IMG/VR virus record: IMGVR_UViG_3300045988_112440 | Strand: one strand, 5' to 3' | Origin: a virus | DNA length: 64,000 nucleotides | In this document: piece by piece, positions 5,666-36,386 of the stretch | Layout: each line of letters opens with the position of its first letter | Numbering within the stretch: position 1 is the stretch's first letter | Notes under the pieces: model-generated | Database searches by the model: none | Seen by the model: the letters and a program-made list of their open reading frames with translations, nothing else | Told to the model about the DNA's origin: nothing | Made by a program: the position numbers and the translations under genes

Positions 5666-5875
5666 ATGTTTCGTAATGTAAAGAGCTTACGATTCATTGG
5701 AACGGATGACTTTCACCGTGAAGTATTTATCGATAAGTTCGGCACAGTATGGAAATACACAGAACCCGGTGAAATGCCGCAAGAACGGCATGACAAACTT
5801 TACACTTCATCCAGCAACAGCATGGATGGAGAACCAGAAGAACCGATGGCAGATGACCTCGATTACAAGATCTAA
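5666..5875 (+). CDS. hypothetical protein
   Basis: ORF track 5621-5875, trimmed to ATG 5666 after GGGTGGTGA. Confidence 0.6.
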   Translation: MFRNVKSLRFIGTDDFHREVFIDKFGTVWKYTEPGEMPQERHDKLYTSSSNSMDGEPEEPMADDLDYKI

Positions 5876-5888
5876 AAGGAGAACTGTA

Positions 5889-6185
5889 ATGAACAGAGAA
5901 GATATTGATATCCTGGAAGTGGGCAATGCTTACACGGCACTGTTTTACAAGAAGAATCACTATCAGCCATACATTGTGGCGTGGCATTTTGACCCGGATT
6001 CCTACACATGGGATCAGGGTCATTATTTTTGTGACCTGAAATCCGCAAAGAAATTCTTTGCAGAGCAGGAGCGCAATAATGCAAATTGCAAGTATTGCGA
6101 AAAGCTTGATTGCCCTCACAGGGATTGCGTCAGACGATTACCCTATGAAAATGGTGGAATCCTTGCTTGTGAGAATCTTTGGTAA
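5889..6185 (+). CDS. hypothetical protein (Cys-rich C-terminus)
   Basis: Frame of ORF 5697-6185. ATG 5889 follows SD AAAGGAGAA. Confidence 0.7.
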   Translation: MNREDIDILEVGNAYTALFYKKNHYQPYIVAWHFDPDSYTWDQGHYFCDLKSAKKFFAEQERNNANCKYCEKLDCPHRDCVRRLPYENGGILACENLW

Positions 6186-6200
6186 AGGAGAATGAAAAGC

Positions 6201-6383
6201 ATGAAAAAGTATGTCATGTACGAATCGCTTGGAATGTGGTATATCACCACGGCAGAAAATCACAATCGTTATATTACGGATGCAAACAAAATCATCAAGT
6301 TGAGCCGTGACTTTGAGGAAGCGAAGGCCATTGTTGATTACAATTGGCACGGCTTTGATGATGTTGAGATCATTCAGAAATAA
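6201..6383 (+). CDS. hypothetical protein
   Basis: ORF track 6192-6383. GGAG ends 1 nt before ATG 6192, so ATG 6201 fits the SD spacing better. Confidence 0.6.
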   Translation: MKKYVMYESLGMWYITTAENHNRYITDANKIIKLSRDFEEAKAIVDYNWHGFDDVEIIQK

Positions 6384-27626: not shown

Positions 27627-28379
27627 ATGACAAGAAATGAATTGCTTGGAGCATTATGCTTTCCAGAATATAATTTTCTTCGGGAGAATGAGCATCTTGG
27701 CAAGCATATGATGTTCGTAACGGTCGGTGGCAGTCATGCTTATGGAACAAATGTTGAGGGTTCAGATCTCGACATCCGAGGGGTGGCATTAAATTCAAGA
27801 GAAGACCTTCTTGGTCTTGGTGAGTTTGAACATTATGTGGATACTCAAACTGATACTACAATCTACAGCTTTAATAAGGCTGTGAAGCTAATGTGCAGTG
27901 GAAATCCTAATATGCTGGAGCAGCTAGGGAACGCCGATGAACTCGTTATTAGCTATAATCCAATGACAAAGTTACTTATGGATAATAAAAAGCTGTTCCT
28001 GTCGAGGCGTGTAATCTATTCGTTTGGCGGTTTTGCAGGTAAGCTGATTCAGAAGGCTGATACGCTGGACAAAGATCCAATTTATCATGGCTCAAAGAAA
28101 ATGCACAAGACGGTAATGAATGTAGTTCGTGTATACCTGATGCTCTTTGACATCTTAGAAAAAGGTGAAATTAAAACCTATCGAGACAACGATCATAACT
28201 TCCTGACGCAGCTTCGCAACGGTGAATATGATTACAAAGAGATTCGTCAGCAACTGATTCCGGCCTATGAAAGCAGATTGTCAGTGGACAAGAGTGAGAC
28301 TTACCTGCCGGACAATGTTGATTGGAAGCGGGTCAACGAGCTTGTGATGACTGTAAATGAGGAGTCTTTAAAGATTTGA
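27627..28379 (+). CDS. predicted nucleotidyltransferase
   Basis: ORF track. GGSHAYGTNVEGSDLDIRGV is a GS..YG...SD.D nucleotidyltransferase motif. Confidence 0.65.
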   Translation: MTRNELLGALCFPEYNFLRENEHLGKHMMFVTVGGSHAYGTNVEGSDLDIRGVALNSREDLLGLGEFEHYVDTQTDTTIYSFNKAVKLMCSGNPNMLEQLGNADELVISYNPMTKLLMDNKKLFLSRRVIYSFGGFAGKLIQKADTLDKDPIYHGSKKMHKTVMNVVRVYLMLFDILEKGEIKTYRDNDHNFLTQLRNGEYDYKEIRQQLIPAYESRLSVDKSETYLPDNVDWKRVNELVMTVNEESLKI

Positions 28380-29736: not shown

Positions 29737-29771
29737 GGAACGGAGCTACATCATTGTAGAGGAGAATGACT

Positions 29772-30191
29772 ATGGATAACAATATTGACCCAAAGGTCGG
29801 AGAGGTTTGGTTGGTTGATCTATCCAATGCGACAGGTCATCAGCAGCGCGGCATTCGACCGTTCGTTGTGACAAGTAACAACAAGCGTAACTTCTTCAGC
29901 CCAACAATCAAAGGGAATCCGTTATCTTCAAGAATATATAAGCGTTCTCCGGTTCATGTTCTACTCTCAAAGGAAGACTGCGAGTTCCTAGAGGTTGATA
30001 GTATCGTTCTCTGCGAAGAGACTGATACACTTAACAAAGGACAGTTCATCAAGAAACTTGGTGTCTTGTCGGAGCGTCAGATGAATATGATTGCAATGGC
30101 AAGATGCAAAGATGAACCATTTTTGCTCGCAGCATTTCTGAGCGGTGTACAACATACTATGGAATTTCAGAATTTTGCCGCATTTGCTTGA
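29772..30191 (+). CDS. MazF/PemK-family endoribonuclease toxin-like protein
   Basis: ORF 29766-30191, trimmed to ATG 29772 (6 nt after GGAGA). GEVWLVDLSNATGHQQRGIRPFVVTSNN...DSIVLCEETDTLNK aligns with the MazF fold pattern. Extra ~30-aa C-terminal tail. Confidence 0.7.
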   Translation: MDNNIDPKVGEVWLVDLSNATGHQQRGIRPFVVTSNNKRNFFSPTIKGNPLSSRIYKRSPVHVLLSKEDCEFLEVDSIVLCEETDTLNKGQFIKKLGVLSERQMNMIAMARCKDEPFLLAAFLSGVQHTMEFQNFAAFA

Positions 30192-31246: not shown

Positions 31247-33460
31247 ATGAGAACGCTTTTGCTGTTCCGTGGAGCACCAGGTTGTGGGAAGTCCACCTAT
31301 ATTAAAGAGCATAATCTTGAACAGTACGTATTGAGTGCTGATACACTTCGCCTTATGTGCCAGAGCGCACAGGAAACACCTGCCGGGCAGATGGAGATTT
31401 CTCCGCAGAATGATGATGTTGTATGGGAGATGCTTTTCAAACTGCTTGAGGTGCGTATGAGTCATGGCGAGTTTACCGTGATTGATGCAACGAATTCCAA
31501 GACGGTCGAAATGAATCGTTATAAGAATCTGGCAAAACAGTATCGTTATCGGATGTATGTTATTGACATGACTGACCTTCCGATTGAGGAATGCAAACGA
31601 AGAAACGCTCAGAGAGAATGGCTGAAGCGAGTTCCTGAAGCGGCCATTGATAAGATGTACGCTCGGTTTGCTACTCAAAAAGTTCCTTCTGGCGTGACAG
31701 TTCTTCCTTCTACTACAGATGTGATGTCCGATTTGAATTACTGTCCGAATGACTTCAACCAGTGGAAGAAGATCCATGTCATCGGTGATGTTCATGGCTG
31801 TTATACTTGTTTAAGTGAATACCTTGGCGAGATGAAGGACGACGAACTTTATATTTTCGTTGGTGATTATCTCAATCGTGGCATCGAAAACGTTGAGGTA
31901 TTCAAGTTCTTGTGTGATGTTGTAAATAACAACCGCAAGAATGTGATCCTTTTGGAAGGGAATCACGAGCGTTGGCTGAACAAGTGGGGGCATGATGAAC
32001 CGGTTCAGAGTGAAGAGTTTGCAAACTACACTCGTCCGCAGCTTTTTAAAGCTGGTATTGATAAGAACACTGCTCGTAAGATCTATTCCAGAGTCGGCCA
32101 GTGTGCCTACTTTGAGTATGATGGTAAGCGGTATTTCGTGAGCCACGGTGGTTTGAGTTATCTGCCTTATTTTCTTCCTTTCGTATCTGCTGACCAGATG
32201 ATCAAAGGTGTAGGTCGCTATCCTGATATGCTAACCGTGGCTGAGTCTTGGGAAAAATCGATGCCTGATAGCTATATTCAGATATTCGGTCATCGAAATG
32301 TGCAGGATGTTCCTATTGATATGGGGCATCGGTGCTACAACCTCGAAGGAAAAATCGAGTTTGGTGGATATCTCCGTTGCGTGGAACTTGAACACGGTCA
32401 GCCCGTCAAGTGTGTAGAAACCAAGAATGATGTATTCCGAAAAGAGGAACCAAAGACCGAATCTGCCGTTGAAATGAAAACTGAGTTCGATAACGCAGAA
32501 CTTGTTAGTAAGATGCGTCAAAGCAAATATGTGTTTGAGAAGCGATTCGGAGATATTTCTTCTTTCAACTTCTCTCGTGAAGCATTTTATAAGAAGCATT
32601 GGGATGAGGTTTCTACCAAAGCAAGGGGATTGTTCATTAACACAAAGACGAATAAGATTGTAGCTCGAAGCTATGATAAGTTCTTTGCGGTTGATGAGCG
32701 GAATGAAACGAGAATTGGAAACCTACAGAACACTTTGAAGTTCCCGGTGACTGCGTATCTAAAAGAGAACGGATTTCTTGGTATCATTTCGTATGATGCA
32801 GAACAGGATGGCCTGTTCATTGCAAGTAAATCCACTCCTGAAGGGCCTTTTGCAGATATGTTCCGAAAGATTCTCATGGATACGACTTCTGATGAAGATC
32901 GTAAGAATCTGAAAGAAGTTGCAAAAGAGAATGGCTCCATCATCTTCGAGGTGATTGATCCTGTGAATGATGCTCATATCATTGAATACAAGAAACCACA
33001 CATTGTTTTGCTGGATATTATTGCGAATGATATGAACTTCAGTGTGATGGATTACGATGATCTGAAGCGTGTTGCTGAAAAGTGTCATTTGCAGATTAAG
33101 GAGAAGGTTAAGACTTTTGAGAACTGGAGTAAATTTTATCCTTGGTACGAGGAAGTCATGAACGAGAACTATCTGCATCATGGCTTTGAACACGTTGAAG
33201 GCTTTGTTTTGCGAGACAGCAACAATTTTATGTTTAAGATGAAGCTTCCTTATTATAAGCACTGGAAGTTCTTGCGTGGTGTCATGCAGAGTGTCCAGAA
33301 GCGTGGTTATTACGAAAACACTGCCAAGCTATTTACTGCTGAGGATAACCTGTTCTATGGTTGGATGCGTGAGCAACGAGAGAAAGACCAGGAGTCTTTT
33401 TGCAAGAAGGGTATTATTCAGCTGCGGAATGAGTTCTACGCAAGTCAGCAGAAGAGCTGA
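31247..33460 (+). CDS. trifunctional polynucleotide kinase / metallophosphatase / ligase (Pnkp-like RNA repair enzyme)
   Basis: ORF track. P-loop GAPGCGKST. Phosphoesterase motifs GDVHGC, GDYLNRG and GNHE. Ligase-type motifs KENG, EGFVLRD and FKMKL. Confidence 0.8.
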   Translation: MRTLLLFRGAPGCGKSTYIKEHNLEQYVLSADTLRLMCQSAQETPAGQMEISPQNDDVVWEMLFKLLEVRMSHGEFTVIDATNSKTVEMNRYKNLAKQYRYRMYVIDMTDLPIEECKRRNAQREWLKRVPEAAIDKMYARFATQKVPSGVTVLPSTTDVMSDLNYCPNDFNQWKKIHVIGDVHGCYTCLSEYLGEMKDDELYIFVGDYLNRGIENVEVFKFLCDVVNNNRKNVILLEGNHERWLNKWGHDEPVQSEEFANYTRPQLFKAGIDKNTARKIYSRVGQCAYFEYDGKRYFVSHGGLSYLPYFLPFVSADQMIKGVGRYPDMLTVAESWEKSMPDSYIQIFGHRNVQDVPIDMGHRCYNLEGKIEFGGYLRCVELEHGQPVKCVETKNDVFRKEEPKTESAVEMKTEFDNAELVSKMRQSKYVFEKRFGDISSFNFSREAFYKKHWDEVSTKARGLFINTKTNKIVARSYDKFFAVDERNETRIGNLQNTLKFPVTAYLKENGFLGIISYDAEQDGLFIASKSTPEGPFADMFRKILMDTTSDEDRKNLKEVAKENGSIIFEVIDPVNDAHIIEYKKPHIVLLDIIANDMNFSVMDYDDLKRVAEKCHLQIKEKVKTFENWSKFYPWYEEVMNENYLHHGFEHVEGFVLRDSNNFMFKMKLPYYKHWKFLRGVMQSVQKRGYYENTAKLFTAEDNLFYGWMREQREKDQESFCKKGIIQLRNEFYASQQKS

Positions 33461-33467
33461 ATTAAAA

Positions 33468-33497
33468 TAGACATTTTATCGTGATTTTCGTTAGAAT
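33468..33497 (+). promoter_or_regulatory. candidate promoter of the tRNA array
   Basis: TAGACA (33468-33473), 18 bp spacer, TAGAAT (33492-33497). TATCGTGAT direct repeat nearby. Confidence 0.4.
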
Positions 33498-33575
33498 AAT
33501 TAACGAAGTATCGTGATGTTTCTTCCTCCAAAAATGCTCTGCGCGGGGCTGACAGCCGGGAAAGACCGGCAATAT

Positions 33576-33660
33576 GGGGATATGGTGAAATTGGCAGCCA
33601 CGCTTGATTCAAACTCAAGTGTCGAAAGACGTATCGGTTCAAATCCGATTATCCCTACCA
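33576..33660 (+). tRNA. tRNA-Leu(CAA): tRNA-Leu (anticodon CAA), type II, CCA encoded
   Basis: Hand-folded. Acceptor GGGGATA/TATCCCT. Anticodon stem CTTGA/TCAAG with loop TTCAAAC. Long variable arm. T arm ATCGG-TTCAAAT-CCGAT. Confidence 0.85.
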
Positions 33661-33857
33661 TGAAGATCAGTTGTTCTGGCTAGATCGGGGATTGGCCGTT
33701 CATTGGCAAACGACAGGTATCATACCGGTAAAGGATGCCGAGCCAAATAGGAAGGGGAATAAGGTGCAAGCCGAGTAGCTGTCGGACGAATACCCTTCAG
33801 GTAGCCAGTAAACCGGAATGTAAAACAAATGTTGGCTGTTTCTGATCTTCTATATAA
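33661..33857 (+). ncRNA. 197-nt structured spacer (unclassified candidate ncRNA)
   Basis: Nested helices: 33662-33670/33842-33850 (9 bp), 33676-33682/33802-33808 (7 bp), and two internal arms. Confidence 0.35.
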
Positions 33858-33940
33858 GCTACCGTGGTGGAATGGCAGACACCGGAGACTTAAAATCTCC
33901 TGTCGGAAACGACGTGCCCGTTCAAGTCGGGTCGGTAGCA
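33858..33940 (+). tRNA. tRNA-Leu(UAA): tRNA-Leu (anticodon UAA), type II
   Basis: Acceptor GCTACCG/CGGTAGC. Anticodon stem GGAGA/TCTCC with loop CTTAAAA. Long variable arm. No CCA encoded. Confidence 0.85.
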
Positions 33941-33947
33941 TTGATAT

Positions 33948-34023
33948 CCGGGTGTAGCTCAGTTGGAAGAGCGCGTGCTTTGGGAGCATGAGGCCGCAGG
34001 ATCGTGACCTGTCACTCGGACCA
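33948..34023 (+). tRNA. tRNA-Pro(UGG): tRNA-Pro (anticodon UGG)
   Basis: Acceptor CCGGGTG/CACTCGG (C1-G72). D arm GCTC..GAGC. Anticodon loop TTTGGGA. CCA encoded. Confidence 0.85.
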
Positions 34024-34056
34024 ACCCGAAAGGGCATGTAGAATTTTTCATTCACA

Positions 34057-34110
34057 TTATTCCCAGCTCTCTGGAAACGGAGCAGTGTGACGTAGTAAGC
34101 TGGGCATATG
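34057..34110 (+). ncRNA. covarying spacer element, copy a
   Basis: ATTATT CCCAGCT [CTCTG-GAAA-CGGAG] CAGTGTGACGTAGTA AGCTGGG. Confidence 0.5.
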
Positions 34111-34112
34111 CT

Positions 34113-34183
34113 GCGCCATCGCCAAGCGGTAAGGCAGAGGACTTTGACTCCTCCATCACAGGTTCGACCCCTGTTGGCGCAAT
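34113..34183 (+). tRNA. tRNA-Gln(UUG): tRNA-Gln (anticodon UUG)
   Basis: Acceptor TGCGCCA/TGGCGCA (U1-A72). Anticodon stem GAGGA/TCCTC with loop CTTTGAC. T arm ACAGG-TTCGACC-CCTGT. Confidence 0.8.
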
Positions 34184-34187
34184 TTAT

Positions 34188-34269
34188 GCGGATATGGTGG
34201 AATGGCAGACACGCCAGACTTAGGATCTGGTGCTTCGGCGTGTGGGTTCGATGCCCACTATCCGCACCA
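34188..34269 (+). tRNA. tRNA-Leu(UAG): tRNA-Leu (anticodon UAG), type II, CCA encoded
   Basis: Acceptor GCGGATA/TATCCGC. Anticodon stem CCAGA/TCTGG with loop CTTAGGA. Variable arm TGCTTCGGCGT. Confidence 0.85.
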
Positions 34270-34319
34270 CGATCATAGAATGGTTGCGTACCGTTTGTTG
34301 ATCTCCTTTGACTGCCACT

Positions 34320-34375
34320 ATTATTCCCAGCTCACCAGTGATGGTGCAGTAGTGCTTTGTAAGCTGGGTGATTAT
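34320..34375 (+). ncRNA. covarying spacer element, copy b
   Basis: ATTATT CCCAGCT [CACCA-GTGA-TGGTG] CAGTAGTGCTTTGTA AGCTGGG. Confidence 0.5.
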
Positions 34376-34450
34376 GCAGCGGTCGTACAATGGTTAGTAT
34401 ATCAGCCTTCCAAGCTGAGGATGAGGTTTCGACTACCTTTCGCTGCTCCA
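34376..34450 (+). tRNA. tRNA-Gly(UCC): tRNA-Gly (anticodon UCC)
   Basis: Acceptor GCAGCGG/TCGCTGC. Anticodon stem TCAGC/GCTGA with loop CTTCCAA. Discriminator U. CCA encoded. Confidence 0.85.
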
Positions 34451-34545
34451 ATCTCGTATGGGTAGGATTTTTAGCGGTCAAATCCGGCTGCGCCTGTGCG
34501 AGATACCACCCCGAAAGGGGAGAGATATAGGAAATGTGCATCACT

Positions 34546-34600
34546 GTTATTCCTTCCTCGTCTATATGATATAGATGCAATAGTGTTTATAAGGAAGGTT
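34546..34600 (+). ncRNA. covarying spacer element, copy c
   Basis: GTTATT CCTTCCT cg[TCTATA-TGA-TATAGA] TGCAATAGTGTTTATA AGGAAGG. A further hairpin TCCCAGT/ACTGGGA follows at 34600-34633. Confidence 0.45.
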
Positions 34601-34637
34601 CCCAGTTGAATAGTTGCAGCTGTTTGACTGGGAATAT

Positions 34638-34714
34638 GGGATAGTAGCTCAGTTGGTCAGAGCTGGCGGCTCATAACCGCTTGGTCGCGAGTTCAAATCT
34701 TGCCTGTCCCACCA
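34638..34714 (+). tRNA. tRNA-Met(CAU): tRNA with CAU anticodon (elongator Met or Ile2), CCA encoded
   Basis: Acceptor GGGATAG/CTGTCCC (G1-C72, so not initiator-like). Anticodon loop CTCATAA. T arm GCGAG-TTCAAAT-CTTGC. Confidence 0.8.
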
Positions 34715-34808
34715 GCCCAATAGGGTATACATAAAATTTTTGTTTTATAAGCGATGAAATAATATGACGTTGATACGTCTATTATTTTTTCGCTCATTTT
34801 CGGAGATT

Positions 34809-34829
34809 TAGCTATGTAACACAGGATAC
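34809..34829 (+). promoter_or_regulatory. ACAGGATAC-core motif, reverse-type copy
   Basis: TAGCTATGTAACACAGGATAC. Ends 17 nt before GTG 34847. Confidence 0.6.
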
Positions 34830-34846
34830 TAAAAGGAGGTGGTTTG

Positions 34847-36386
34847 GTGAAACATTATGGAAGTATTTGCGAGATTGATGGTTCTAAGATTGAGCCTGTC
34901 TCGTGTATCACTGGTGGTTCACCTTGTTAGCCAAGACCTTTCTATTGCCGGTAAGCGGGCAGGTTTGGCTGGAGAACGGTCTGGTCTATTTATGGAAATG
35001 ATTCGTGTGATAAAGGAAATGAGGGATGCCACCAATGGAGAATGTCCAAAATTTGCAATCTGGGAAAATGTTAGAGGAGCACTTTCCTCAAACAACGGAG
35101 AAGACTTCCGATGCGTCTTGGAAGAATTTGCACACATCGTCGAAGCAGACGCTACAATTCCTAAACCTTCGGGAAAAGGCGGAAAATGGTCTAAATCCGG
35201 CGCAATTTCCGGTAATGGATGGTCTTTGGCATGGAGACTCTTTGATGCTCAATATTGGGGAGTGCCCCAACGTCGTCAAAGAATCGCGCTTGTCATGGAT
35301 TTTAGAGGACAACGTGCCGCAGAAATACTATTTGAGCGCACGGGCGTGCCAGGGAATCCTGACGAGAGCATCCCGACGTGGCAAAGCTTTGCCAGAATTA
35401 CTGAAGAATGCACTGCTAAAGATGATCGAGTGGTGGGAGAAAAAAGCTTTTGTATTGTCGGAAACATGATTGACAGAGAAACCAATATGAACGGGACTGG
35501 TGTAAAAGAAGATACTGCTTTTACTATAAACACTATTGACCGTAATGCTGTTGCCTATACTTTAAAGATTCGTTCAGGATGCGAAGGTGGTGGCAAAGGC
35601 GCACTGGTACAGACCGAGAAGAGTGCAACGCTTTCTACATTGCAAGATCAAACGCTAATCTGCTTGGCAGACAACACCTCTTTACATAATTTAAAACAAA
35701 AGATTTGTGTCTTGAATGATCAGGGCGGTAGTGTAATGAATGTTTCTTACGATATTGTAGGAACAATAAGAGCACAAGAGCATGGTCATCAACCAATTGT
35801 ATTTGAGAGCCATAGTCAAGATGCTCGATACACCCAGCAAGGTAATACAAGTCCGGCTTGTACGGCTCAATGGGGAACTGGTGGCAATAATATGCCGCTT
35901 GTTGCCGAAAAGAAAGCCTTTGCAATGCAACGCATTGGTGAATACAAGGAAAGTGAACAAGCTAGTACGATGAAATCTCGTGACTACAAGGATGCTACTG
36001 ACTTGATTGCAGAGAAGGAAACGAAGAATCTGCAATGGATTGTTCGTCGCCTGACTCCTGTTGAGTGTGAACGGTTACAGGGTTTTCCTGATGGATGGAC
36101 CGATATTGGCGAGTGGTTTGATGAGAATGGTAAAAAGCACAAACCTGCCGATTCTCCTCGTTACAAAGCACTCGGTAATTCAATCGCTTTGCCTCAGTGG
36201 TATTGGATTTTCCAGAAAATGAAACCGTATATCGGTGAAAATCCCACGCTTGGCAGTCTTTTCGATGGAATTGGTGGCTTTCCGCTTGTCTTTGAAAGTA
36301 TGTATGGTGATGGTGCTGCTATCTGGGGATCAGAGATTGAACCGTTCTGCGTTGCAGTAACGAAGAAGCATTTCCCAGAAGACTAA
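34847..36386 (+). pseudogene. C5 cytosine DNA methyltransferase, circularly permuted motif order, frame broken at the PCQ motif
   Basis: GTG 34847 (7 nt after AGGAGG) encodes MKHYGSICEIDGSKIEPVSCITGGSPC, then TAG at 34928. The +1 frame (track ORF 34857-36386) continues QDLSIAGKRAG, ENV, QRRQR, GNSI and ends with LFDGIGGF...SEIEP. Confidence 0.7.

Follow-up and report, generated by a model that had tools for sequence, protein, structure and literature searches.

Several kinds of structured RNA are known from the neighborhood of phage transfer RNA (tRNA) genes or share features with them. The species 1 and 2 RNAs of phage T4 are non-tRNA stable RNAs that are co-transcribed with the phage tRNAs and presumably released by tRNA-processing enzymes; the type III antitoxins ToxI and CptI are small, repeated, pseudoknotted RNAs that act in phage-host conflict by binding RNases of the Kid/MazF fold; and MALAT1/mascRNA places a compact higher-order RNA structure a few nucleotides (nt) upstream of the RNase P site of a tRNA-like unit. 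The large noncoding RNAs GOLLD and ROOL also occur in the context of phage tRNA clusters (PMC5737381). Theta ribozymes have the layout P1(7), J(2), P2(7), P3(3), U-CC-N4, P3', P1', GG, L4, CUAA, P2' and sit at the 3' ends of mostly CCA-less tRNAs in the tRNA arrays of gut Caudoviricetes (PMC10879173). Bacterial RNase P is reported to cut H-type pseudoknots in loop 1 with a preference for U at −1, and this cleavage depends on a 3' RCCA (PMC12710915). Here, we describe a pseudoknot family, apparently previously undescribed, from the 64,000-nt stretch of the IMG/VR virus record IMGVR_UViG_3300045988_112440 (“the window,” meaning this whole stretch). Three copies lie between the genes of a plus-strand array (33576-34714) in which ARAGORN calls seven tRNAs, namely Leu-CAA, Leu-UAA, Pro-UGG, Gln-UUG, Leu-UAG, Gly-UCC, and Met-CAU. 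A literature search yielded no description of the element sequence or of a comparable leader motif.

The element is an autonomous RNA domain, folded as an H-type pseudoknot whose helix junction carries an inserted hairpin. From 5' to 3', it consists of a 6-nt pseudoknot strand (PK5'), the loop UAUU (L1), the 5' strand of a helix of 7 base pairs (bp; P2-5'), the variable hairpin, CA, the second 6-nt pseudoknot strand (PK3'), a joiner (J), and the 7-nt P2-3' strand, which together make a unit of 53-58 nt. P2 always has 7 bp and runs straight into the variable hairpin, while J measures 6-13 nt, typically about 7, and ends in GYA. Scores are those of R1, a covariance model built from homologues that contains only P2 and the hairpin and leaves the pseudoknot out. 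The copies in the window are as follows:

34052..34104, plus strand: copy a, 64.4 bits, E 1e-13; PK5' 34052-57 UCACAU, L1 34058-61 UAUU, P2-5' 34062-68 CCCAGCU, hairpin 34069-82 with GAAA loop, CA 34083-84, PK3' 34085-90 GUGUGA, J 34091-97 CGUAGUA, P2-3' 34098-104 AGCUGGG
34316..34368, plus strand: copy b, 70.2 bits; PK5' 34316-21 CACUAU, L1 34322-25, P2-5' 34326-32, hairpin 34333-46 with GUGA loop, CA 34347-48, PK3' 34349-54 GUAGUG, J 34355-61 CUUUGUA, P2-3' 34362-68
34542..34598, plus strand: copy c, 47.6 bits; PK5' 34542-47 CACUGU, L1 34548-51, P2-5' 34552-58 CCUUCCU, hairpin 34559-77 (19 nt), CA 34578-79, PK3' 34580-85 AUAGUG, J 34586-91 UUUAUA (6 nt, without C), P2-3' 34592-98 AGGAAGG

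R1 finds exactly these three copies in the 64 kilobases (kb) of the window, the next-best match scoring 10.3 bits. A preliminary description, made from the window sequence alone, had already reported three copies at these positions, although its starts lay 4-5 nt too far inside and the 5' pseudoknot strand was missed. What it took for a conserved 3' single strand in fact holds six bases that pair with the 6 nt immediately 5' of UAUU, giving UCACAU/GUGUGA in copy a, CACUAU/GUAGUG in copy b, and CACUGU/AUAGUG in copy c. The outer stem of copy c does differ from the others by three double compensatory changes, CCCAGCU/AGCUGGG becoming CCUUCCU/AGGAAGG, as had been claimed. The inner stems of copies a and b stay paired as well, but three of the five pairs differ between them (two double changes and one G·U-to-G-C) rather than four positions of five. 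GNRA loops, which had been presented as part of the element, do cap these two hairpins but occur in only 30 of 72 unique copies; the hairpin is free both in length (4-14 bp) and in loop, with GAAA, GUGA, UGA, CA, and runs of A all represented. Copy a is found identical or nearly so in at least 17 phage loci, and the copy c type is present in at least 28.

With homologues included, there is strong support for a functional fold that compensatory changes have preserved. In an alignment of 50 unique copies (A1), 98.5% of the cells in helices are paired, and over A1 and a second, model-made alignment in which the pseudoknot was not modelled (A2) the range is about 97-98.5%. Sliding one partner strand by 1-3 columns lowers pairing to 32-43% in A1 and to 28-46% over both alignments. 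Both sides have changed in 12 of the 17 pairs of A1, distributed over the PK helix (five of six), P2 (four of seven), and the hairpin (three of four). In A2, 96.3% of the PK helix is paired and five of its six pairs covary, even though this helix was outside the model. More than 100 cells hold G·U pairs, as against 13 unpaired cells, and therefore the fold exists only on the plus strand, as RNA; consistently, the element is always oriented like the tRNAs. A further line of evidence comes from a sequence-only pattern that leaves the PK5' strand and P2 pairing unconstrained. Among its listed matches, 35 were unique viral-contig sequences, 26 of which have at least six of seven P2 pairs together with at least five of six PK pairs, and nine of which have neither; by chance, five or more of six pairs are expected in 3%.

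The helices vary freely while the junction nucleotides stay fixed. U7, A8, U9, U10, U17, C18, A57, A71, A72, G73, and G78 are invariant in the 50 unique copies, which span host, phage, and noncoding RNA (ncRNA) contexts, and U6, C11, G15, C16, G55, C56, and G68 are kept in at least 90% of them. The C-G pair that closes P2 is nearly invariant (49/50), and the first base of J is C at about 90%, being U in the copy c type (UUUAUA or UUUUAUA) and in variants with a 13-nt J. Minimum free energy z-scores of the element, computed for nested structures only, range from −1.2 to −2.2; they are modest and uninformative either way because the pseudoknot is not modelled. Several additional tertiary contacts were considered and dropped: pairing between loop 1 (UUAU) and the joiner (GUAA) shows no covariation and conflicts with P2, a P1.1-like pairing of the hairpin loop with the joiner shows no covariation either, an 11-nt GAAA-receptor-like core has its UAU and UAAG in the wrong helical context and with inconsistent GNRA partners, and complementarity to the acceptor of the downstream tRNA gave nothing consistent.

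More than 300 copies were found in total. In phages, the element occurs with two to four copies per tRNA array in a clade of gut phages of 110-150 kb: the R1 search returned 211 copies in 100 sources, again two to four per array, and the sequence-only pattern matched at least 119 viral-contig loci, mostly IMG/VR gut phage contigs of 110-150 kb. Human-gut metagenomes contribute more than 100 contigs with members of the family. GenBank phages gave matches at the level of the tRNAs only, apart from the unannotated faecal contig MT835676, which carries two copies, and a 24-kb piece of the window had no megablast match. Loci gathered through the neighboring Pnkp-Rnl1 protein were all close relatives (88-99% identity) and therefore do not extend the diversity of the family. 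Two divergent phages (L008 and L318) carry the element without any tRNA, near the 3' end of a promoter-driven ncRNA of about 430 nt that finishes with a hairpin, a linker, the element, 19 nt, and a terminator; the two copies differ by a compensatory PK change. The 5' 130 nt of the L008 transcript (5875-6305) give a sub-threshold match to RAGATH-36 (44.7 bits, E 1.5e-7, gathering score 70).

Outside phages, the element has a chromosomal home. When one genome per species was searched with a stricter pattern (185,579 species), eight contigs matched, seven of them from Faecalibacterium, including the isolate F. tardum CLA-AA-H175, and the eighth a small contig binned as Collinsella. All eight have it in the leader of a monocistronic tRNA-Leu(UAA) gene, in the order TTGACA-17-TATCAT promoter, variable hairpin, pyrimidine-rich linker, element, 5-9 nt, tRNA, terminator. 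The locus is a housekeeping one, with the IMPDH RNA, IMPDH, and NAPRTase upstream, and the host copy is flanked by NAPRTase and a helix-turn-helix gene. A metagenome scan yielded 120 loci, 119 of them structured and mostly of the host type, with covarying hairpins. The element family is thus common to Faecalibacterium chromosomes and a large clade of gut phages, and because it is common to both, the phages would infect Faecalibacterium, which we regard as their probable host. GC content is 40.9% in the window versus 52-59% in the host loci. Codon counts, taken from one gene on each side, show that the phage Pnkp-Rnl1 open reading frame (ORF) uses TTG, CTA, GGA, CAA, and CCA, which are nearly absent from host IMPDH; these are the codons read by the phage's own tRNAs. 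UUA is essentially unused in the GC-rich host IMPDH, the sole host gene counted. One Faecalibacterium element locus (L123) contains, at 2056-2163, the IMPDH RNA motif RF02994 (117.5 bits) upstream of the IMPDH gene, and therefore Rfam-type surveys have covered this region without reporting the leader pseudoknot.

The surroundings of the element follow regular rules, which the window illustrates:

33468..34790, plus strand: transcription unit holding the three copies, running from a promoter-like site (33468-33497) through seven tRNAs and other structured spacers to a terminator-like hairpin
34024..34051, plus strand: upstream half of the copy a spacer module, a GAAA hairpin followed by a U-rich linker with a pyrimidine at −1
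34025-34034, plus strand: the GAAA hairpin CCCGAAAGGG, abutting the encoded CCA of tRNA-Pro
34105..34111, plus strand: 7-nt spacer CAUAUGC between copy a and tRNA-Gln(UUG) at 34112-34182
34270..34315, plus strand: upstream half of the copy b spacer module, a hairpin (34271-34303) adjoining the CCA of tRNA-Leu(UAG) and, 3' of it, the linker CUCCUUUGACUGC
34369-75, plus strand: 7-nt spacer between copy b and tRNA-Gly(UCC)
34601..34632, plus strand: extra hairpin, CCCAGU...ACUGGG, in the gap that separates copy c from tRNA-Met; the 5-nt spacer AAUAU comes after it
34766-34790 (scan match 34766-34779), plus strand: terminator-like hairpin with a T run, the sole plus-strand terminator-like site of the array

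A promoter and terminator scan found no array-internal plus-strand signals besides 33468-33497 and 34766-34779, and within the element itself neither a GC hairpin with a T run nor −35/−10 hexamers. The array is accordingly read as a single predicted operon, with all three copies probably transcribed within the plus-strand tRNA precursor. A role in antitermination (put/boxA-like) was considered and dropped, as the element also sits directly before operon-final terminators.

On the 3' side, 5-9 nt separate P2-3' from the tRNA 5' end in 86 of 113 phage copies and at essentially all host loci. Copies a and b each stop exactly 7 nt short of their tRNAs, where a distance of 2-8 nt had been given; for copy c, the distance to tRNA-Met is 39 nt and not 37, and the further hairpin reported in this gap is present. 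That hairpin is an optional insert of a type that also follows other copies in related phages, in the classes whose element lies 41-49 nt from the tRNA, and in the remaining phage copies an extra hairpin or an odd tRNA-like unit lies directly 3' of the element. Of 120 unique contexts, 111 have U right after P2, with no CCA following, and 119 have a pyrimidine right before the PK helix. On the 5' side, 34-95 nt lie between the end of the upstream tRNA and the start of the PK helix in most copies; the distance is 2 nt in only six genomes, in whose arrays the element begins 2 nt after the CCA of tRNA-Pro at the Pro-Gln junction. The tRNA preceding the element encodes CCA in 135 of 136 unique contexts, usually with the hairpin abutting that CCA, versus an absence of CCA in 63 of 79 tRNAs that have another tRNA directly after them, counts that are not phylogenetically independent; this difference suggests a link between the element and 3'-end maturation. 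A three-part module of variable hairpin, pyrimidine-rich linker, and element recurs in phage spacers, the host leader, and the ncRNA, although the upstream linker of copy b, for instance, varies in length among phages.

What, then, might the element do? The roles listed in the preliminary description (a processing signal, a ribozyme, or a protein-binding module) still span the live hypotheses. The reading that we tentatively prefer, at somewhat less than an even chance, is that the element is a non-catalytic leader or spacer module of stable-RNA precursors that is recognized by a Faecalibacterium factor. We favor it because the junction is invariant while the helices are free, because host and phage have the element in common, because it appears restricted to a single genus, and because of its association with CCA. 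The invariant junction nucleotides would form the recognition surface for a host processing or turnover RNase or an RNA-binding protein. The element would fold co-transcriptionally as a discrete bead beside the tRNA, an RNase P cut 5-9 nt downstream would separate the two, and the element, together with the hairpin that abuts the upstream CCA, may set the trimming or stabilization of the spacer and of the upstream CCA-ending tRNA. Phages would keep such a module because the same host machinery matures their tRNAs, and the finding of seven Faecalibacterium contigs among the eight matched, at a housekeeping locus, suggests dependence on a host factor. The arrangement recalls MALAT1/mascRNA, from which it differs in being bacterial or phage-borne and in using a pseudoknot instead of a U-rich triple helix; a stabilizing role would be hypothetical here.

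Several observations weigh against this interpretation. In L008 and L318, the element stands just before a terminator in a tRNA-free ncRNA, and therefore the element cannot in general act through RNase P cleavage of a tRNA 3' of it. The element is dispensable at the Pro-Gln junction, which lacks it in 5 of 76 related arrays, leaving the two tRNAs 3-5 nt apart, and with the two tRNA-free cases this makes the tie to the downstream tRNA looser than was first implied. Directly adjacent tRNAs lie 3-7 nt apart, and the 5-9-nt gap is near this value, such that it may merely reflect dense packing. In addition, the one-genus restriction is apparent, resting as it does on a strict sequence pattern, and the recognizing host factor is hypothetical.

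The first competing explanation, possible but on balance unlikely, is that the element represents a new class of small self-cleaving ribozyme with the topology of the hepatitis delta virus (HDV) ribozyme. The PK helix would then be P1, P2 would be P2, and the hairpin would stand in for P3. Self-cleavage at the 5' edge of the PK helix, or close to it, would separate tRNA units or release the upstream ncRNA and leave 2',3'-cyclic phosphate and 5'-OH ends, with the invariant UAUU, CA, and GYAA junction serving as an active site in place of L3, P1.1, and C75. The likeness is considerable: the covariation-backed strand order is the nested double pseudoknot P1-5', P2-5', P3, P1-3', J4/2, P2-3', and the 7-bp P2 continues directly into the next helix without a P4. 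Both the order and the 7-bp P2 match theta ribozymes (PMC10879173), and the niche, gut Caudoviricetes tRNA arrays near RNA-repair and ligase genes, is the same. The pyrimidine 5' of the PK helix (119/120) has no pairing role in a simple pseudoknot, six genomes start the element 2 nt after the CCA of tRNA-Pro, and the ncRNA that carries it near its 3' end has a weak RAGATH-36 match. A kinase-phosphatase-Rnl1 ligase of the kind that heals exactly such ends is encoded beside the array, together with RlaP, and a pseudoknot with many invariant nucleotides fits the criteria for “sophisticated RNA” (PMC5737381).

The details depart from the HDV scheme. There is no G1·U at the end of P1, the first PK pair being CG (16), GC (12), UA (7), UG (6), or unpaired (9), and the PK helix has 5-6 bp where P1 has about 7. 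P1.1 is missing, with C/U instead of GG after PK3'; the hairpin of 4-14 bp with its arbitrary loop contrasts with a 3-bp P3 and 7-nt L3; J1/2 is the invariant UAUU rather than a variable linker; and an extra CA separates the hairpin from the P1-3' strand. If any base were a catalytic C, it would most plausibly be the one that opens J, but this base is not invariant: copy c and the variants with a 13-nt J have U there. Whereas theta ribozymes abut the tRNA 3' end, the element lies 5-9 nt upstream of a tRNA 5' end and 2-90 nt after a CCA-encoding tRNA; its edges differ from mature tRNA ends, and in most copies it does not match the theta cleavage site within ±5 nt of the tRNA 3' end. A Python descriptor for HDV and theta folds, which recovers a published theta control, found no G1-type fit in the array. 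Rfam 15, which includes the hammerhead, twister, twister-sister, pistol, hatchet, and HDV ribozymes, riboswitches, RAGATH motifs, and others, gave only tRNAs and noise at E ≤ 10 over 33400-34850 and only tRNAs at gathering score in the window; in 129 kb of 14 related loci, it likewise gave only tRNAs and no ribozyme or riboswitch family at gathering score, and it did not match the element in the host loci either. Neither ARAGORN, at relaxed thresholds or in mitochondrial mode, nor RF00005 called the element a tRNA. New ribozyme classes are, moreover, rare among candidate motifs, which we count against this explanation. We describe the element as a real and well-supported structured RNA family of HDV-like topology without HDV-like membership; the preliminary description was right to keep it out of that family but had overlooked the shared strand topology of the full fold.

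Also unlikely, in our estimate, is that the element is the functional part of a small RNA that is freed by the enzymes processing the flanking tRNAs and binds a protein in trans. The released piece would comprise the 5' hairpin, linker, and pseudoknot, with the tRNAs as punctuation, and might act, for example, as a decoy or inhibitor of an endoribonuclease. The stable RNAs of the T4 tRNA cluster and the ToxI/CptI antitoxins provide precedents. Such a role would fit a three-part module that is the same in the host leader, phage spacers, and ncRNA, a copy number of two to four per array with each junction optional, the existence of the element without any tRNA, and the presence in these arrays of odd tRNA-like units that resemble processing signals and not decoders; a gene for an endoribonuclease of the MazF/PemK fold lies 3.4 kb upstream. 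Set against this, the linker is conserved neither in sequence nor in length, and in the ncRNA context no excision by tRNA enzymes would take place. The type III antitoxins are tandem repeats of fixed sequence, whereas copies of the element are separated by tRNAs, have covarying helices, and have no adjacent gene of the ToxN/CptN/TenpN type; no toxin gene adjoins the host copy. The T4 species 1/2 RNAs, GOLLD, and ROOL share with it the position of a structured RNA in or beside phage tRNA clusters, but the element is about ten times smaller, has several paralogous copies per array, and is also found in a host chromosomal tRNA leader.

A small chance attaches to a ligand-sensing pseudoknot, that is, a riboswitch-like aptamer through which a metabolite or ion would influence how rare-codon tRNAs mature or how stable they are. 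The compact pseudoknot and its invariant junction would suit this role, and the host copy leads a single tRNA-Leu(UAA) gene whose codon, UUA, is nearly unused in IMPDH (one host gene counted), which recalls the bldA-type control of a rare-UUA tRNA. Several copies within one operon are hard to reconcile with it, as are the lack of an alternative pairing or expression platform in the 5-9 nt before the tRNA, the position directly before an operon-final terminator, and the lack of a riboswitch family match at E ≤ 10. That the element might be the first ligand- or protein-gated switch on tRNA maturation is, in our view, less likely than a ribozyme on an HDV-type scaffold.

More doubtful again is an RNase P pseudo-substrate, in which P2 (7 bp) stacked on the PK helix (6 bp) would mimic an acceptor/T minihelix and a loop 1 cut between U10 and C11 would create an extra endonucleolytic entry site. 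The constant 7 bp of P2, its near-invariant closing C-G (49/50), and the invariant U before it speak for such mimicry. The substrates treated in PMC12710915, the tRNA-like structure of turnip yellow mosaic virus and a biotin-aptamer pseudoknot, resemble the element in having a loop 1 that ends in U beside a 7-bp stem, consistent with the loop 1 cleavage and −1 U preference given there, and the element resides in a precursor that is certainly processed by RNase P nearby. That cleavage, however, requires a 3' RCCA (PMC12710915), while the element has U after P2 (111/120), no CCA, and an inserted junction hairpin, so that its cleavage would be hypothetical. In most contexts, moreover, such a cut would duplicate the one made at the genuine RNase P site about 60 nt farther 3'. 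Finally, a DNA-level feature (a promoter, a phage attachment [att] site, or a repeat of the repetitive extragenic palindromic or miniature inverted-repeat transposable element [REP/MITE-like] kind) or chance similarity, as might be suggested by repetition within one locus of a phage that encodes integrases, is effectively refuted because the covariation is strand specific: G·U pairs far exceed other mismatches in a fold present on the plus strand only, a three-helix pseudoknot covaries, copies occur only in ncRNA transcription units in sense orientation with none elsewhere in the 64 kb, the array has no internal plus-strand promoter-like sites, and the copies differ in sequence, unlike att cores.

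Faecalibacterium is among the most abundant and most health-associated gut bacteria, and to our knowledge next to nothing has been learned about tRNA production in this genus or in its large uncultured phages. A covarying pseudoknot with an invariant core that is common to the host tRNA-Leu(UAA) leader and to phage arrays therefore offers a concrete and cheap experimental handle. If the element is a site for a host factor, it would show how phage tRNAs plug into host maturation. If it cleaves itself, it would add a ribozyme class and, after theta ribozymes, a second independent case of phage RNA catalysis around tRNAs, and it would serve as a separator within operons of stable RNAs, both in a keystone gut bacterium and in the phages of that bacterium. 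In either case, Rfam-type annotation gains a new family.

Other structured RNAs are present in the same arrays. The first tRNA of the window array has its own small leader hairpin (33555-33575) with a conserved GAAAGA loop and a CAAUAU spacer; its stem is CCGG/CCGG in the window versus CUCG/CGAG in L001 (about 2685-2708), a compensatory change. Between tRNA-Leu(CAA) and tRNA-Leu(UAA), 197 nt (33661-33857) hold no tRNA and are closed by a 9-bp long-range stem, GAAGAUCAG...CUGAUCUUC. The stretch is probably a further structured RNA, for which Rfam gave no match at E ≤ 10; among related phages, the spacer measures 79, about 200, or about 950 nt. Directly 3' of the CCA of tRNA-Gly, at 34451-34520, comes a conserved “X element,” which also occurs at 3007-3078 of L001 and in many phage loci. 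It consists of an AUCUCG...CGAGAU closing stem, a GGAUUU/AAAUCC inner stem, a small GGC-UGC-GCC hairpin, and a 3' ACCA, and is followed by the hairpin CCCCGAAAGGGG. In L001, the inner stem reads GGAUCU/AGAUCC, again a compensatory change, and the fold z-score is −2.8; the X element gave no ARAGORN tRNA call at relaxed thresholds or in mitochondrial mode, and no Rfam match.

Sister arrays contain odd tRNA-like genes (L005 2626-2694, L021 2140-2208, and relatives; L144 9574-9640). A first type combines normal acceptor, D, and T arms with a 3-bp anticodon stem and the loop AGCUAAC (CUA, amber-reading) or GGCUGAA (CUG); ARAGORN misses it or calls it “His-atg,” and RF00005 scores it at 45-51 bits. 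A second type has a 5-nt “anticodon loop” and scores 30 bits.

Upstream of the window array lies a cluster of RNA-conflict genes (27627-28379, 29766-30191, and 31247-33460), whose members are an RlaP-family nucleotidyltransferase, a PemK/MazF-like endoribonuclease, and a repair-ligase fusion. The fusion, of 737 amino acids, joins a polynucleotide kinase, a metallophosphatase, and a T4 Rnl1-type RNA ligase and ends 115 nt before the first tRNA; the PemK/MazF-like gene (29766-30191) is 3.4 kb from the array and is preceded by an ORF of its own. Just 3' of the array, a C5 cytosine methyltransferase gene (34848-36386) is broken inside its catalytic PCQ motif. At the shift site (34923-34932), one frame reads ...ITGGSPC and then TAG, while the +1 frame continues as QDLSIAGKRAGLAGERSGLF. 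The break is a 4-nt insertion, TGT-TAGC-CAA, which in 45 related phage loci is TAGC (42) or TAGT (3), AGC and AGT both encoding Ser in the +1 frame; in three loci, the motif is unbroken and reads CCCTGCCAAGAC. The site is a candidate for a programmed +1 frameshift at UGU_UAG or, alternatively, for a stably inherited split gene.

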